DNA of 60,081 nucleotides from an uncultured Oscillospiraceae bacterium (lineage in GTDB: Bacteria; Bacillota; Clostridia; Oscillospirales; Oscillospiraceae), in the NCBI GenBank assembly GCA_964408545.1, contig CAYOZT010000001.1, forward strand, positions 1 through 60,081, given 5' to 3'. The notes beneath the pieces are model-generated. The model did no database searches. It saw only the letters and a program-made list of their open reading frames with translations, and had not been told where the DNA came from. The position numbers were made by a program, and so were the translations under genes. The first letter of the stretch is position 1. Each line of letters starts with the position of its first letter. Shown in pieces: positions 25,026-60,081 of this stretch.

Positions 25026-25069
25026 CCGCCGCGCGAGCGGAACACACGCGCGACATGGGCAAAATCACC

Positions 25070-25098
25070 AAAACGGAGGGATGCATTCCCTCCGTTTT
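25070..25098. terminator. Intrinsic terminator ending the cysS-polA-tsaD run
   Basis: AAAACGGAGGGA-TGCAT-TCCCTCCGTTTT. Confidence 0.8.
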
Positions 25099-25151
25099 CT
25101 GCCTGTTTCGGGCGGAATTGACAAAAAGCGCTTGAAAGTTTCAAAAAATGC

Positions 25152-25178
25152 TTGACAGAATATATATATATATATAAT
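25152..25178 (+). promoter_or_regulatory. SigA promoter of the pilin gene with a (TA)8 microsatellite in the spacer
   Basis: TTGACA 25152-25157, GAA, (TA)8 25161-25176, TATAAT 25173-25178; spacer 15 nt. Confidence 0.8.
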
Positions 25179-25238
25179 TGCCTTAGTTTCGGGACAAGCC
25201 CGAGATAAAAGAAACTTTTTAGGAGGAAAACACAACTT

Positions 25239-25607
25239 ATGAAAAAACTGAACAAAAAAGGCTTCACCATCGTGGAGCTGGTCATCGTCATCGCGGTCAT
25301 CGCGATCTTGGCCGCCGTCCTGATCCCGACCTATAGCAGTGTCGTCGAGAAGGCGAACAAGTCCGCTGCCATGCAGGAGGGTGCTGCCCTTTACAAGGAA
25401 GCGCTTGCGCTTGATCTGTCCGACGGCGTGCAGGATGGCAAAGATGGTGAAACTAAGATTGAGACCGTCAACGGCAAAAATGTTACATACACTGTTACAA
25501 CCACTAACGGCACTACCACTATTAAGTTCGTATACACCGCCAAGGCCTATAAGGTAACATATGATGGCACAAAGTGGGAATATACGACGGTTAGTACTAA
25601 TAGCTAA
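25239..25607 (+). CDS. Type IV pilin (class III signal peptide)
   Basis: MKKLNKKG|FTIVELVIVIAVIAILAAVLIP with E at +5; AGGAGG RBS; 122 aa; own promoter and terminator. Confidence 0.93.
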   Translation: MKKLNKKGFTIVELVIVIAVIAILAAVLIPTYSSVVEKANKSAAMQEGAALYKEALALDLSDGVQDGKDGETKIETVNGKNVTYTVTTTNGTTTIKFVYTAKAYKVTYDGTKWEYTTVSTNS

Positions 25608-25661
25608 TAATAGTGGAGAATAATTTACCTGTTTCTTTTGTTGAGTTTCTGTAAAAAGGGT

Positions 25662-25697
25662 CGAGGGACGCGAAATGCGTCCCTCGGTTCTTTTTTT
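25662..25697 (+). terminator. Intrinsic terminator of the pilin gene
   Basis: CGAGGGACGC-GAAAT-GCGTCCCTCG followed by GTTCTTTTTTT. Confidence 0.85.
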
Positions 25698-25715
25698 ATG
25701 CCGCCGCAGTCAGGC

Positions 25716-26180
25716 GTAGGGGGCGGCGCCTTCGACGCCCCGCATGATACGCGCCGGATCATCGATCACCCATCGTAGGGACCGGCGTCCTCGACGGTCC
25801 ACGTTCTACCGTGTACGGGCGGACGCCTCTGTCCGCCCGCAAAAACGCCAATGCCACAGTAGGGCGGGGACACGTCCCCGCCGCCCCATTCCGACGCTTG
25901 AGTGGCCGAATGCACGCACCATGTCCCGATGTTTGTGCCGCTACTGTAGGGAAGAGGCCATGCCTCTTCCGAGCGGGCGGCTATCGGCCGCCCGCCGCGC
26001 CGTAGGCGCGAAAAAAACGGATCCTTTGACTCGCTATCGCTCGCTCAGGATGACATATTTTCACTTTTTGCCATTGTCCGACGGCGCAATTATCGTACGG
26101 GGCGGCGGGGATATATCCCCACCCTACCGCGCATCGCCGGAGATGGGGAACGCGGGACGCCGAGGGCGTCGTCCCCTACA
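25716..26180. repeat. Cluster of REP-like GTAG-tagged palindromes plus one TGTC-tagged element
   Basis: GTAG/GTAC plus GC-rich hairpin at 25716, 25775, 25813, 25859, 25946 (+) and 26127, 26179 (-); minus-strand TGTCATCCTGAGCGAGCG..AGGATCC at 26019-26055. Confidence 0.75.
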
Positions 26181-26231
26181 AGCGTGGGGAACACGGGACT
26201 GCGACGAAAATCTTTGCAGCTCGCTCGTTTT

Positions 26232-37170: not shown

Positions 37171-37407
37171 TTAGCCCCCGTTTTTATCGACGATGGCGAC
37201 GACGACCGCGTCGACGGGGGCATCCATGCAATAGCGGGCGGCACTGTGCCCCGTCACGAGCAGCACCGTGTCCCCGCTGCCTGCTCCGACCTGATCGGAG
37301 GCGACCAATTCCTCCGTTTCCGTGCGCACGACCAAAAAGGTCTGCCCCGAGAGGCAGGAGGCTTTTCGTGTTGCCCACACCGAGCCGATCACTGTTCCGA
37401 TTTTCAT
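37171..37407 (-). CDS. eutN: BMC vertex pentamer protein EutN/CcmL
   Basis: GTVIGSVWATRK, D.VGAGSGD.VL, DAVVVAIVD. Confidence 0.93.
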   Translation of the reverse strand: MKIGTVIGSVWATRKASCLSGQTFLVVRTETEELVASDQVGAGSGDTVLLVTGHSAARYCMDAPVDAVVVAIVDKNGG

Positions 37408-37793
37408 TGTGTTCCCTCCAATATTTCCTTGGCAAGCGGCGTCAGTACCGCGCCCGGCGCAATGACGGCGCCGCTGCTGCGTATGGCGCGTGCCTCCTGC
37501 GCCGTGATCAGATGACGGCGATTGCCGTCGGTAAACAGGACGCCCCAGTTTTTCAGCTCGCGCTGCGCGGTCGCGCAGGAGGCCGAGAGGGCGCGATTGT
37601 TCACCTGCGGAAGCCCGGGCGTGTACAGATAAACGGCGACACCGCTCGAAAGCGCCTCCAAGACGGCTTCCTCGCGAAAATGCAGCAGTTGCCCGAGCGT
37701 GATCGAGCCGATGACCACCGCGTCGTAGGGCTTTTCCTCGACGAATTCAAAGGGCAGGGGAGGCGCCTGCCCGATCAAAAGTGCACGCTTCAT
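37404..37793 (-). CDS. Conserved eut-locus hypothetical protein
   Basis: Translationally coupled between pduL and eutN; C-terminal LITAQEA...VLTPLAKE motif seen in BMC-locus accessory proteins. Confidence 0.75.
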   Translation of the reverse strand: MKRALLIGQAPPLPFEFVEEKPYDAVVIGSITLGQLLHFREEAVLEALSSGVAVYLYTPGLPQVNNRALSASCATAQRELKNWGVLFTDGNRRHLITAQEARAIRSSGAVIAPGAVLTPLAKEILEGTQ

Positions 37794-38398
37794 GGCACGA
37801 TCCTCCCGAGATCGCCCGCCTTGAGCGCGCAGGCGTTTGCCTCGTCAAAGTCCAGATGCGCGGCGGTCGAGAACCGATCGCTGACGCGCACGACCGTGTC
37901 GCAAAAGATCGTCGGACGGTCGCTGAGCGTCTGCAAACGCACGCTTTGCCCATCCGTCACGCCGAAACGCTGCGCGTCGAGCGGCGTCAGATGCAAATGC
38001 CGCTTGGCGATGATGACGCCCTCTTGCACGGCAATGCGACCGTTCGGCCCTTCCAGAACGATGCCGGGTGTGTTTTTTGTGTCGCCCGAGAGTCGGATGG
38101 GCGCGTCGATACCGAGCGCGCGGCTGTCGGTCAGGGAGATCTCCACCTGCGCGCTTTTTCGCACGGGGCCGAGCACCGCGACGTTTTCCAATCGACCTTT
38201 TGCACCGACGATCGTCACGCGTTGTTCACTTAAGAATTGTCCCGGCTGCGAGAGCGGGCGCTTTATCGTCAGCTCGCTGCCGAAAAGCGTCAGGCATTGC
38301 TCGCGCGTCAGGTGCACATGGCGCGCCGACGCCTCGAGCGGAATGAAGATCCGCTCGAGCACGGCCTGCGTCAGCGTTTGGATGGCCTTATCATCCAT
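37790..38398 (-). CDS. pduL: Phosphotransacylase PduL
   Basis: SARHVHL, LSQPGQF, QVEISLTD, AKRHLH, HLDFDEANA; N-terminal amphipathic peptide. Confidence 0.92.
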   Translation of the reverse strand: MDDKAIQTLTQAVLERIFIPLEASARHVHLTREQCLTLFGSELTIKRPLSQPGQFLSEQRVTIVGAKGRLENVAVLGPVRKSAQVEISLTDSRALGIDAPIRLSGDTKNTPGIVLEGPNGRIAVQEGVIIAKRHLHLTPLDAQRFGVTDGQSVRLQTLSDRPTIFCDTVVRVSDRFSTAAHLDFDEANACALKAGDLGRIVP

Positions 38399-39089
38399 GT
38401 TTCGCTTCCTCCTTTTTCAGGCGGATCATCAGGATATAGAGCATACTGCTCATGCGGTTAAGAAGCATTAGGATATCGCTACGCGAACAGCTGCCGTCCG
38501 CGTTTTCGAAGGCACGGGCGGCGCATAGCTCCGCCGCCCGTGCGGCGCAGCGCGCCCGATTGAGCATTAATATCGCAGCGCCGTCGCGAAACGAGGGCAT
38601 AAAATGCGGCTGCGCGTAGTACTTCTGCGGAAAGTGCGAATGCTCGCGTAGCTCCGCGGCCGTCAGACCGCACAGCGTGTCGAGCTTTGCAGGTTCTTGC
38701 ATGACGTCATAGCGGATGATGCTGCGCGCAAGCGAGAGTATTTCCTCCAGATCGTTTTGCGTTTTCCGATCGCAGGAAAGCTGCGCGAGCAGGATCTGCG
38801 CCTCAAGCGTATCCATCGCACCGCGAAAGGCGATGATCGGCGCGGATTTCGCCACGAGGATATCGCCGCGCAAATGCGTCATGTGCTCGGGCTTTTGTGT
38901 GAAACATTCGCCCGAGAGCGTGTGATAACGCTCGATTTTTGCCTCCTTGGCAGAACGCAGTTCGATGCGTTCGTGGCGCAGATAATCGCGTGCGGAAGGG
39001 CTGAGCGTATCGCCGTCACCGAGGAAAAAAACACGTTTGCCGTCGCGATTGCGCACATTCGCCCTGACCGCTTCCAGATCATAAAGCAT
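38391..39089 (-). CDS. eutT: Cobalamin adenosyltransferase EutT-type
   Basis: KPEHMTHL, FRGAMDTLEA, LREHSH, LNRAR...E, LNRMSS. Confidence 0.88.
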   Translation of the reverse strand: MLYDLEAVRANVRNRDGKRVFFLGDGDTLSPSARDYLRHERIELRSAKEAKIERYHTLSGECFTQKPEHMTHLRGDILVAKSAPIIAFRGAMDTLEAQILLAQLSCDRKTQNDLEEILSLARSIIRYDVMQEPAKLDTLCGLTAAELREHSHFPQKYYAQPHFMPSFRDGAAILMLNRARCAARAAELCAARAFENADGSCSRSDILMLLNRMSSMLYILMIRLKKEEAKHG

Positions 39090-39389
39090 TTATTGTTCGG
39101 CGCTTTGCGCGCTGCGTCCCTTGGGGAGGATGGCGTCGACCTCGGTGTGCGGCCGCGCGATGACGTGCACGGAGATCAACTCACCGACTTTTTCAGCGGC
39201 GGCGGCACCGGCATCGGTCGCGGCCTTGACCGCGCCGACATCACCGCGTACCATCACCGTGACGAGTCCGCCGCCGACCTGCTCCTTGCCCACCAGCTGC
39301 ACATTGGCGGATTTGACCATGGCGTCGGCCGCTTCGATCGCACCGATGAGACCTCTTGTTTCGATCATGCCCAAAGAATTCGTGTCCAT
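39090..39389 (-). CDS. eutM: BMC hexamer shell protein
   Basis: [36 protein letters not shown]. Confidence 0.93.
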
Positions 39390-39403
39390 ATTCGTTCATC
39401 CTT

Positions 39404-40840
39404 TCAAGTGTTCTTGTTGTTTAGCCGTTCCAGAATTTTTGCGGTGAGCAGTTCGACAAGCTCGGCGTTCTTTTCACACGCGGGCGTCGTTTGCTCCCGT
39501 CCCCACGCGACACGGCGGATATTGATAAGGTCGAGCGGGGAGATGTTGTTCGACGAGCTGCTGCCGCCGACCGCGCCGCAGCCGAGCGTCAGCGCGGGGA
39601 AAAGGGAAGTGCTCGCGCCGATCCCGCCGAGCGCGGCGGGCGTGTTGACCAGAAAACGCGAAACGGGGATGCTGCGTGCGAATTTTCGGATCACGTCACG
39701 GTCGCTTGCGTGCATGGCGAAGGTGTGTCCCGCGCCCTCGTGCGTCAGCACCTCAATGGCCTTTTCGAGGACGGCGTCTTCGCTGTCCATTACGAAAAAT
39801 GCCAGCACGGGACAAAGCTTTTCCATCGAATACGGGCGCGTGGGTCCTGCCTCCTGCTCGTGCGCGACGAGCACTTTCGTGTTCGCGGGCACGGAAAAGT
39901 GCGCCATCTGCGCAAGCGAGAGCGCACTGCGCCCGACGATGTCGGGATTGAGCGCACCGCTCGGGCGGAACAAAAGTTTTGCAAGGGAGGCGGCCTCTTG
40001 CGTATTCATGAAATAAAAGCCCAGCTTTTCGCCTTCGCGTATGACGCGCTCGCGCATCCCTTTTTCGACGATGATGCTTTGCTCGGACGCGCAGACCGTG
40101 CCGTTATCGAAGGTTTTCGAGCGCAGGATGCATTCGAGCGCATGGGAAATGTCGGCACTGTGGTGGATATAGGCCGGGCCGTTGCCCGCGCCGACGCCGA
40201 TGGCGGGCTTTCCCGAGGAATAGGCCGCCTTGACCATGGCAGGGCCGCCCGTGGCAAGGATGAGGCGCACCGCATCCGCGTGCATCAGCTCCTGACAGCC
40301 TGCCATAGACGCGATCGACAGGCAGCCGATGCAGCCTTCGGGCGCTCCTGCCTCGCGTGCGGCCTGCTCGACGATCTGCGCAGCCTTTTGCGTGCAGCCG
40401 AGTGCCTTCGGATGCGGCGAGAAAATGACGCTGTTGCCGGATTTCAGGCAGATGAGCGCCTTATAGCAGACGGTCGAGGTCGGGTTCGTGCTCGGCACGA
40501 TCGCCGCAATGACGCCGACACCGACGCCGATCTCCCAAAGCCCTTTTTCTTCGTCTTCGTGCAGAAATCCGACGGCTTTCATATCGCGGATGGCGTCGAA
40601 AACTTTTTCCGAGGCGAAGCGATTTTTGACCGTTTTGTCCTCGACATTGCCGAAGAGAGTCTCTTGCACGGCCAATGCGGCAAGCTCGGCGGCGTGTTCG
40701 GCAAATCGGCGGGAAACGGCGGCGCAGATCGCGTCGAGTTTTTCCTGCGAAAATCCTTGCAGGGCGGTTTGTGCCTGCGCGGCACGCCGACATAGAAGCC
40801 TTGCTTCCTGCCGCGCGGCAAGATCTTGATCGAAATCCAT
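39404..40840 (-). CDS. eutE: CoA-acylating acetaldehyde dehydrogenase
   Basis: PSTNPTST, ATGGPAMV, GVGAGN, FDNGTVCASEQ, EKLCP, TLGCG; C-terminal amphipathic peptide. Confidence 0.93.
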   Translation of the reverse strand: MDFDQDLAARQEARLLCRRAAQAQTALQGFSQEKLDAICAAVSRRFAEHAAELAALAVQETLFGNVEDKTVKNRFASEKVFDAIRDMKAVGFLHEDEEKGLWEIGVGVGVIAAIVPSTNPTSTVCYKALICLKSGNSVIFSPHPKALGCTQKAAQIVEQAAREAGAPEGCIGCLSIASMAGCQELMHADAVRLILATGGPAMVKAAYSSGKPAIGVGAGNGPAYIHHSADISHALECILRSKTFDNGTVCASEQSIIVEKGMRERVIREGEKLGFYFMNTQEAASLAKLLFRPSGALNPDIVGRSALSLAQMAHFSVPANTKVLVAHEQEAGPTRPYSMEKLCPVLAFFVMDSEDAVLEKAIEVLTHEGAGHTFAMHASDRDVIRKFARSIPVSRFLVNTPAALGGIGASTSLFPALTLGCGAVGGSSSSNNISPLDLINIRRVAWGREQTTPACEKNAELVELLTAKILERLNNKNT

Positions 40841-59300: not shown

Positions 59301-60081
59301 GGCGACGAGATCATCCTGCACTATACCGATGACTACACCAAAGAAGACGGCAGTATGTCTCCCGATTACGACGCAACTGCCAAGGCAGTAGATGAACTGA
59401 TCGAGAATATCGGCACCATTTCCTACACCGATGCTTGCAAGGAGCGGATCGACGCTGCCCGCAAGGCATACGACGCGCTCTCCGCCTCCGACAAAAAGAA
59501 AGTGACCAAGCTCTCCGTTCTGGAGACTGCGGAAAAAGACTATGCCAATTTGAAGCAGGCGCAGGACAACCTCGACAAGGCTGTTGACGACCTCAACAAG
59601 GCCATCACCGACGGCGACGCGGCGCTCGACAAGAAGATCGCCGACTTGACCGCCGCCCTCGAAAATGCAAAGAAAGCATTCGAAGCGACCGATGCCGCCG
59701 ACAAGGCCGACCTCGAAGCTAAGATCGCTACTGCGCAGACCACGCTGCAGGGCGCGATCGACAAGGTCGCAAGCGATCTGGAAGCCGCGAAGACGGAGCT
59801 GAGCAAGGCCATCACCGATGGCGACGCGGCGCTCGACCAGAAGATCGCGGACTTGACCGCCGCCCTCGAAAATGCAAAGAAAGCACTCGAAGCAACCGAC
59901 GCCGCCGACAAGGCCGACCTCGAAGCTAAGATCGCTACTGCGCAGACCGCGCTGCAGAGCGCGATCGACAAGGTCGCAAGCGATCTGGAAGCCGCGAAGA
60001 CGGAGCTGAGCAAGGCCATCACCGATGGCGACGCGGCGCTCGACCAGAAGATCGCGGACTTGACCGCCGCCCTCGAAAATG
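56397..60081 (+). CDS. Large secreted multidomain surface protein with DUF4430 (3'-partial, >1228 aa; absent from the ORF track because it has no stop in the window)
   Basis: Signal peptide MQKTEFTKRFLAILLCLVMIFSTVPTTAFA; cadherin-like beta-sandwich; two Big_3-like domains (PIKTIYQAGEEFDITGL; YKTEYYVGDSFDTDGI); GSGTSSDPYLI and GLUG-like VGGIAG repeats; DUF4430 (SINGLREKDNGEGSGWMYTVNG...ILHYTDDY, ~58971-59350); helical repeats; frame consistent at all points checked from 56397 to the window end. Confidence 0.88.
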   Translation, partial: MQKTEFTKRFLAILLCLVMIFSTVPTTAFAAEITENSTTQEENVAPSAKTIEVSPEHQLSELYFKNSFTQESSFYEMQPAFDSEIKEHNVIIPDTVNPSQNFAIWATLSETASGDITVQYVKHDGKQAPEYPITSGDEYGTSLSKPFKQNSLIGNSLTFRVGGEEAYIVNIIRKATLKGLTLSDQTGAAIELSSTFDGSIYSYSAEIPSDAVLSITATATASEANVSVNGSILEENSITVTPEWSADKTATITITVAGGTAQSSTYTIELTQKGAAIDRIEIVTPPIKTIYQAGEEFDITGLSVKAVYIDGSSRIIDNSKLSFVPDTPLAAGTNKIEISYKGVKTYQPITVLSNLVGSGTSSDPYLISSVEDMVSIRTQVSQGNNFKGCYFEITANLVFPADWIPIGCLKAGALSTENGVNILPFSGSIDGKGHTLTFASGSKPLFNYVREASVSNFNIVAPFMDGYALVDKYTVDYGEDGNYAEGTGGSYQEGCPDTITISNVTIKSGSIIKNGGFIGGFASGGNTVTVVDCLVEKNVKIGCNADGTSADNSCVGSFGGMVSGVFRNCVSYADVYGSKYVGGIAGYKGQSMGLFNIIGCEFHGNVIASGSYAGGIVGAGYSASSAPNTMCVTIEACKCDGTVTGADYVGGILGAESAIQCWSNGIGIIRNNSFTGTIHSSGENVGGVIGYMASLNRYTIVENNFYSCTPNNVEGVGKIKYIDTSCTTRETASDTTYFDTSKELPNISGVALKSHNREDDPLGADKTKLFYTGEIAEKYVTELLISGNYKTEYYVGDSFDTDGIQFEARWSNGEITYPSLTEIAFFGFNSLDVGTNGITAKYENTSCIFTISVMPKSGKITVNITILGDSKHGETDDPHGLAMGGLSEWAYELDFEANANETVWDVLQRVFEKYNMYVDANDDNAYGTIYIKSINGLREKDNGEGSGWMYTVNGVYPNVGVAATFVKEGDEIILHYTDDYTKEDGSMSPDYDATAKAVDELIENIGTISYTDACKERIDAARKAYDALSASDKKKVTKLSVLETAEKDYANLKQAQDNLDKAVDDLNKAITDGDAALDKKIADLTAALENAKKAFEATDAADKADLEAKIATAQTTLQGAIDKVASDLEAAKTELSKAITDGDAALDQKIADLTAALENAKKALEATDAADKADLEAKIATAQTALQSAIDKVASDLEAAKTELSKAITDGDAALDQKIADLTAALEN
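59597..60081 (+). repeat. 207-bp (69-aa) intragenic tandem repeat, at least 2.3 copies
   Basis: CAAGGCCATCACCGA recurs at 59597, 59804 and 60011; near-identical units. Confidence 0.95.

Follow-up and report, generated by a model that had tools for sequence, protein, structure and literature searches.

The window (the whole 60,081-nt stretch of DNA analysed here, 58% GC) is part of a genome assembly of 1.93 Mb in 275 contigs (G000; 55% GC, 81.5% complete, 5.4% contamination) and holds a short type IV pilin gene behind a promoter whose spacer is filled by a TA repeat. The gene, its promoter and the surrounding elements form a cassette with the following features:

25050..25378, plus strand: constant 5' arm (terminator, promoter, leader and pilin N-terminus), common with the copy on contig C53 at 95.7% identity over 329 nt
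25070..25098, strand not assigned: terminator-like hairpin upstream of the promoter (12-pair stem, -19.7 kcal/mol; scan match on the minus strand only)
25132..25161, plus strand: second, weaker promoter-like site that overlaps the main one, TTGAAA, 18 nt, TG-n-CAGAAT (9/12)
25152..25157, plus strand: -35 box TTGACA
25160..25176, plus strand: alternating AT run of 17 nt that holds (TA)8, fills the spacer and enters the -10 box
25173..25178, plus strand: -10 box TATAAT, after a 15-nt spacer
25186..25206, plus strand: hairpin predicted by folding at the 5' end of the leader
25221..25226, plus strand: ribosome-binding site AGGAGG
25239..25607, plus strand: 122-aa type IV prepilin with constant N-terminus and variable head (PF07963 and TIGR02532 over cut-off)
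25621..25732, plus strand: constant 3' arm of the cassette, 98.2% identical to C53 over 112 nt
about 25659-25697: terminator-like hairpin in the 3' arm (terminator scan and fold)

The promoter reads exactly as an earlier note on this DNA had claimed, with a 15-nt spacer in which (TA)8 (25161-25176) merges into TATAAT. That note was also right that the hexamer placed 17 nt from the -35 box in the present allele is TAATTG, and that the promoter stands ahead of the ribosome-binding site and ATG (25239) of a pilin. Sigma-A polymerase needs about 17 nt between its two boxes. Adding or removing two bases rotates one box against the other by about 70 degrees, and short repeats can slip when DNA is replicated. 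Tandem Repeats Finder returned 32 rows for the window, in which the pilin-promoter tract was the sole period-2 array. The remark that the run is unusual and without a second of its kind is thus correct for the window, but genome-wide the tract is one of 21.

The weaker promoter-like site overlaps the main promoter and its placement is unaffected by tract length. Two promoter-like sites occur in the region compared with 0.8 +/- 1.0 in shuffled sequences; the weaker one is possibly a chance occurrence, and it could be a source of basal output from the pilin gene. The upstream hairpin would insulate the pilin promoter from the tsaD-GNAT genes that precede it, and because terminator-like hairpins flank both sides, a one-gene transcript is suggested for the window pilin. 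No regulator gene linked to the cassette was found among the open reading frames of the window. The cassette is flanked by a cluster of REP-like palindromic repeats (25715-26200) with matches on dozens of contigs, and a Y1 transposase gene on contig C89 carries an internal stop. Elsewhere in the window lie bacterial-microcompartment-like genes with an aldehyde dehydrogenase (37171-40840, recognised by eye from translations only) and, at the contig end, a 207-nt tandem repeat of 2.3 copies at 97% in a coding-like stretch (59597-60081).

The window pilin has a class III signal peptide (G|F, E at +5) followed by a hydrophobic N-terminal helix, and G8, F9 and E13 are invariant in 112 aligned sequences among the 120 listed homologues; one homologue among the matches listed is labelled Clostridia by NCBI. 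The predicted structure (pLDDT 86.8) comprises a long helix (H11-60) and four strands, with the helix packed on an antiparallel sheet in the model. The top eight VIA-align hits were all pilins or pseudopilins, at modest scores (Z 5.2-6.3, rmsd 3.3-4.7, 77-103 aligned residues), and a Foldseek search with the model gave no match at E<=0.001. Five short paralogues share 93-97% identity with the window pilin over the first 40 aa and 20-35% over the rest. Its size and stand-alone promoter suggest that it is the major filament subunit.

The assembly genes are encoded in one operon on contig C5 (1479-8023), which comprises minor pilins and PilD-, PilC- and PilB-like proteins behind a plain TTGACA-17-TATAGT promoter without a TA tract. 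The operon has no major pilin like the dispersed ones, and a profile search of the 81.5% complete genome found nothing over cut-off for PilT. The earlier note had also raised a role in competence, for which no support was found: the pilin scored 25.9 bits against a ComGC cut-off of 75 and the ATPase 273 against 300 for ComGA, so that subunits of the ComGC/ComGA type, as expected of a competence (Com) pilus, were not recovered. The ATPase scored 560 for PilB, itself under the cut-off of 676, and is closer to PilB than to ComGA.

Across G000, 21 promoters follow the design TTGA(C/A)-(TA)n-TATAAT. The lengths of alternating AT runs decay geometrically up to 11 nt and are then followed by 21 runs of 13-21 nt, where 0.02 runs of at least 13 nt are expected from the decay of the shorter ones; the other five base pairs together contribute a single alternating run of that size. 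This excess is not due to chance. Promoter context surrounds 20 of the 21 long runs, which together with one 11-nt run make up the 21 promoters. The exception is a 16-nt run outside a spacer (C41:11530), which seems to lie upstream of a minus-strand promoter-like site. The lengths and copy number might instead be an artefact of assembly or binning, produced by collapsed repeats or mixed strains, given that the assembly used k=55, identical promoters were collapsed and contamination is 5.4%. However, the interiors of the largest contigs hold tracts with distinct flanking genes, two each on C4, C8, C13 and C53, the design recurs in independent genomes, and the excess is absent for every other dinucleotide, which leaves an artefact with almost negligible likelihood.

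A downstream gene is present for 19 of the 21 tract promoters, and in every case it encodes either a prepilin (13 promoters) or a large lipoprotein (six promoters). The prepilins comprise six short pilins of 107-133 aa and seven long pilin-fusion proteins of 435-509 aa, and the C-terminal parts of the three fusion proteins scanned matched no Pfam family. The lipoproteins range from 699+ to 1428 aa, and the five scanned contain collagen/GLUG, BspA leucine-rich or solute-binding domains. Eighteen of the 19 genes are intact to their stop codon and the remaining one runs off its contig. A stricter automatic tally, in which one double-counted tract promoter was merged, placed a prepilin or lipobox protein behind all 16 distinct tract promoters that had a reading frame, compared with 10 of 99 plain promoters (16-18 nt) with a reading frame; a further 66 plain promoters had none called. 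Conversely, 13 of the 18 prepilin genes of G000 have a tract, as opposed to 1 of 30 in 29 loci of relatives. The repeat lies between the two boxes, where its unit number fixes their distance, and the excess is confined to surface genes, as in switching of the hif and vmm type.

Spacer lengths were compared between the two promoter classes. In plain promoters 17 nt is by far the commonest length (129 sites), with 25 sites at 16, 11 at 18 and 4 at 15. The 18 tract promoters in which both boxes were recognised have spacers of 9, 11, 13 (five), 15 (five), 16 and 17 nt (four), and the eighteenth lies 17 nt from TATTAT. The prevalence of odd lengths was considered as a sign of selection and rejected, since whole-unit slippage from a starting length of 17 nt yields odd spacers in any case; the two-base steps are a sign of slippage. 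Intact genes at mostly poor spacings would fit reversible silencing better than decay. The stand-alone pilin promoter is one of 21 of this design in the genome, and its (TA)8 tract is probably a slipped-strand switch, with the window copy predicted to be off or weak.

A different origin for the poor spacings would be that decayed spacers quiet duplicated pilins, which would then form a silent archive whose variation arises by recombination between the constant arms. The window cassette (25050-25732) and its counterpart on C53 (10921-11573) have both arms in common (95.7% and 98.2% identity) around heads that are 35% identical, an arrangement that would allow head exchange by recombination, and REP-like repeats flank the cassette. 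Nevertheless, perfect boxes, a ribosome site and a terminator are kept in each cassette, the same promoter design serves unrelated lipoproteins, and five copies stand at 17 nt. Recombination may supplement slippage, but it leaves the tract itself unexplained, and we regard an archive of this kind as very unlikely.

Other repeats in the genome are placed where slippage could act by other means. Five (GACA)n tracts were found in short leader reading frames that precede a terminator hairpin (C11:29020, C52:2350, C47:1, C22:3 and C39:14389), of 13-14 units where whole, and three of them lie at contig ends. On C11 and C52, which hold (GACA)14, the leader stop falls inside the hairpin in one of the three frames and before it in the other two; on C52 a long pilin gene follows about 700 nt downstream. 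On C13 (15005-15022; locus L114), (AG)9 lies in a prepilin-like gene that in the assembled frame is only 139 aa long, whereas another phase stays open for about 545 aa, which makes it a candidate frameshift switch. An (AAGC)13 tract broken by the assembly (C48:1 and C184:1) is found just past a promoter-like site before a secreted protein of 532+ aa.

Whole-unit length differences between homologous copies were found among paralogues, among homologues of the genus and in two Bacilli genomes (G425 and G426; see below). Within G000, a 19-nt run on C7 is matched by a 17-nt run on C57 with 124 nt shared upstream, and a length of 11 on C13 by one of 15 on C49 with 43 nt shared. The geometry of a k=55 assembly is visible in 38 overlaps of exactly 55 nt between contig ends, with both orientations included. 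The terminal 55-mer of C7 spans 17 bases of the tract and the 38 that follow it, and is also held by C56, where it is preceded by A and not, as in C7, by T; as the preceding bases differ, runs of 19 and 17 nt enter one downstream sequence, which continues only in C56. A tract stands exactly at the edge of further contigs (the end of C49 and the starts of C53 and C4). Overall, a repeat occurs within the terminal 55 bases at 11 of the 550 contig ends, compared with 0.36 expected; eight of these end inside the repeat, and five of the 11 are tetranucleotide tracts. Such forks can arise from co-occurring strains or unassembled paralogues (with 5.4% contamination), and shared flanks break contigs on their own.

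The window's own tract showed no fork and no length variant, at a length that is pooled with the C53 copy. Identity between the two copies extends from 100 nt before the tract to 160 nt past it, 277 bases in total, so with k=55 the (TA)8 value is not an independent reading and is likely the pooled majority of two loci. The 17-nt value of four long-pilin copies was likewise pooled by the assembler over identical copies, which makes the ON or OFF call at any one locus soft.

These lengths could also be read as slow tuning knobs, in which each tract gives a graded promoter strength fixed within a strain and does not switch rapidly within a clone. MutS and MutL are both intact, which rejects a mutator background and implies that slippage of an 8-unit tract should be lower; the tracts have only 5-10 units, differences across species and paralogues could be old, and the assembly forks could reflect strain mixtures. 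Against this, genes as long as 881 aa are intact although their promoters have spacers of 9, 11 or 13 nt, lengths that are implausible as useful fixed settings. Two lengths also feed one downstream sequence within a single assembly, and the genome has further repeats with a frame-dependent and hence all-or-none effect. Slow tuning is therefore judged unlikely.

The design is sparse among relatives. A match to the promoter pattern was present in 23 of 400 genomes of the genus, with one to four copies, compared with two genomes for the reversed control, and a stricter pattern matched in 15 of 400 genomes of the class with at most four copies. A genus-wide trait was therefore rejected on these counts, which come from genomes of which many are incomplete and whose assemblies break at repeats. 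Some matches in relatives belong to housekeeping-type genes and are ordinary promoters, at 17 nt, that happen to contain a short TA run. Homologous promoters of the genus nevertheless differ in length: those of one secreted protein have 8, 16 and 22 nt, those of one small protein 7, 11, 13 and 19 nt, and those of two paralogues of one genome (G179) 11 and 13 nt. The spacers of the secreted-protein family are even, so that 17 nt is unreachable by whole units.

Nine genomes of the genus and class encode a 64-99-aa protein whose promoter has a TA spacer of 9-19 nt (loci L030, L034, L035, L037, L038, L043, L164, L173 and L177). The protein had no Pfam family over cut-off and no match in G000; the genes downstream of it are varied and often membrane or lipoprotein-like, five of the loci have a divergent conserved gene, and the locus is possibly a mobile element. 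Two pilin promoters in genus relatives carry other repeats, in one case an interrupted TA tract (L088, on C139 of G102) and in the other a run of A24 that precedes the -35 box (L098, on C4 of G005).

No close relative of G000 was found among the genus genomes or in the metagenome scan, in which the window-type promoter pattern gave two matches, neither with a TA tract. When the window locus was searched in 300 genus genomes, none of the matches listed reached the promoter, with 444 weaker ones beyond these; the best of those listed were 69-80% identical and covered trmO or tsaD, and three extended into the GNAT gene. In the best match (G234), tsaD-GNAT and trmO lie about 7 kb apart and no pilin reading frame of at least 100 aa was seen between them.

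A GTDB scan for the promoter followed by a prepilin returned 20 loci, 14 of them from two uncultured Bacilli genomes; the other six occur singly, have runs of no more than 8-12 nt and were excluded as support. The same promoter-plus-pilin pattern had no match among viral contigs. One of the Bacilli genomes, G425, has 45 such promoters, with spacers of 13 (seven), 15 (27), 16 (one), 17 (six) and 19 nt (four); among the 23 of these 45 promoters that were listed, 20 precede prepilins and three have no convincing reading frame. At its modal spacer of 15 nt, the hexamer at 17-nt spacing is TAATTT, which keeps three key bases. In G426, five promoters fit the stricter pattern, and pilin copies with near-identical downstream flanks stand at 5, 13 and 17 nt.

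The prominence of 15 nt, which is as common as any class in G000 and the mode in G425, is what would be expected if the TA run were a fixed regulatory element, such as a protein site or a melting or cruciform stretch, that fires a short-spacer promoter through an activator or supercoiling. Alternating TA is self-complementary, a property with a structural effect of its own. A fixed element should have one length, however, and the lengths observed extend from 9 to 17 nt in G000 and from 13 to 19 nt in G425; nor is a regulator gene linked to the window's cassette. Such an element is highly improbable as the explanation of the tracts.

Under the slipped-strand switch, the gain or loss of one TA unit would move the spacer to or from 17 nt, and the window copy, at 15 nt, would be one unit short of ON and hence off or weak. 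Cassettes may flip independently during replication while the single assembly operon (minor pilins, PilD, PilC and PilB) stays on, so that each cell would polymerise whichever pilin sits at 17 nt, chosen from six short pilins and seven long pilin-fusion proteins. Among the collagen-like, leucine-rich-repeat and solute-binding lipoproteins, each cell may likewise display a subset of its own. The earlier note had proposed slippage that turns piliation ON and OFF; indirect evidence supports spacer slippage well, but since 13 of 18 prepilins have a tract and the operon has none, a flip more likely changes which pilin is made than whether the cell is piliated. Likely benefits, speculatively, are escape from phage or antibody and changes in adhesion.

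A wider proposal is that a combinatorial surface code arose independently in uncultured Clostridia and Bacilli, in which tens of TA-promoter pilin and adhesin cassettes lie a step or two from ON around one constitutive pilus machine and single cells choose their pilin by slippage and not by gene conversion. In G000, three mechanisms based on repeats (in the promoter spacer, in a leader-peptide attenuator and by frameshift) would serve one surface programme. We hold the case for this proposal to be evenly balanced. Complete pilin genes that are dispersed in the genome, with slippage at their promoters deciding among them, would be a further route to pilin variation, in commensal lineages that are still uncultured. 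Screens that find inversions would miss such switches, and short-read assemblies break at these very repeats and average over them. Spacer length can be read from DNA alone, and metagenomic or metatranscriptomic reads could therefore test which surface proteins are favoured, including in host and phage-pressure settings.

Among known systems, the hif pilus of Haemophilus influenzae is of the chaperone-usher type, the ON state of vmm in Mycoplasma mycoides is a 17-nt spacer, and pil1 of Streptococcus gallolyticus is a sortase pilus. For hifA/hifB, a (TA)9-11 tract is proposed to alter the spacing of the -10 and -35 boxes, a precedent that the earlier note had cited and that holds (PMC2651432). 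The hif system has one divergent promoter pair that switches a subunit together with a chaperone, whereas G000 has many one-way promoters whose products include type IV pilus subunits and whose pilus machinery is without a tract.

In mycoplasmas, dinucleotide insertion or deletion in the vmm spacer turns transcription ON and OFF (PMC10502178, PMC2628566), and in strain 95010 of the mycoides cluster six of six poly-TA tracts precede lipoprotein genes, with unit numbers that differ (PMC3053259). The poly-TA lipoprotein promoters of this cluster, including Vmc of M. capricolum, resemble those of G000 in that several occur per genome. G000 differs in its 19-21 loci, 55% GC, cell wall and intact mismatch repair, and two thirds of its cassettes encode type IV pilins and not, as in the cluster, lipoproteins. 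Switching has been demonstrated for vmm, whereas in G000 it is predicted from sequence.

In S. gallolyticus pil1, a repeat in a leader reading frame ahead of a terminator acts by attenuation (PMC3894217). This resembles the separate (GACA)n tracts of G000 and not the mechanism of the TA tract, with a repeat unit of five bases (GCAGA) in pil1 and four in G000. PilB of Streptococcus sanguinis is described as a modular type IV pilin (10.1101/2021.01.27.428410). Seven TA-promoter proteins of 435-509 aa are like it in joining a pilin N-terminus to a large C-terminal part, and unlike it in that the three C-terminal parts scanned have no Pfam family.

Variation in type IV pilins is attributed mainly to recombination, as in Neisseria pilE/pilS and the inversion of Moraxella, and the available portion of this 2025 review makes no mention of a TA-spacer pilin (PMC11868660). 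A literature search in which subscription journals are thinly covered found no TA-spacer switch reported for pilins of gut Firmicutes, in agreement with the earlier note, which knew of no description for a type IV pilin of commensal Clostridia. Taken with hif and vmm, the type of mechanism is known, and its scale and the genes that it would serve in G000 are new.
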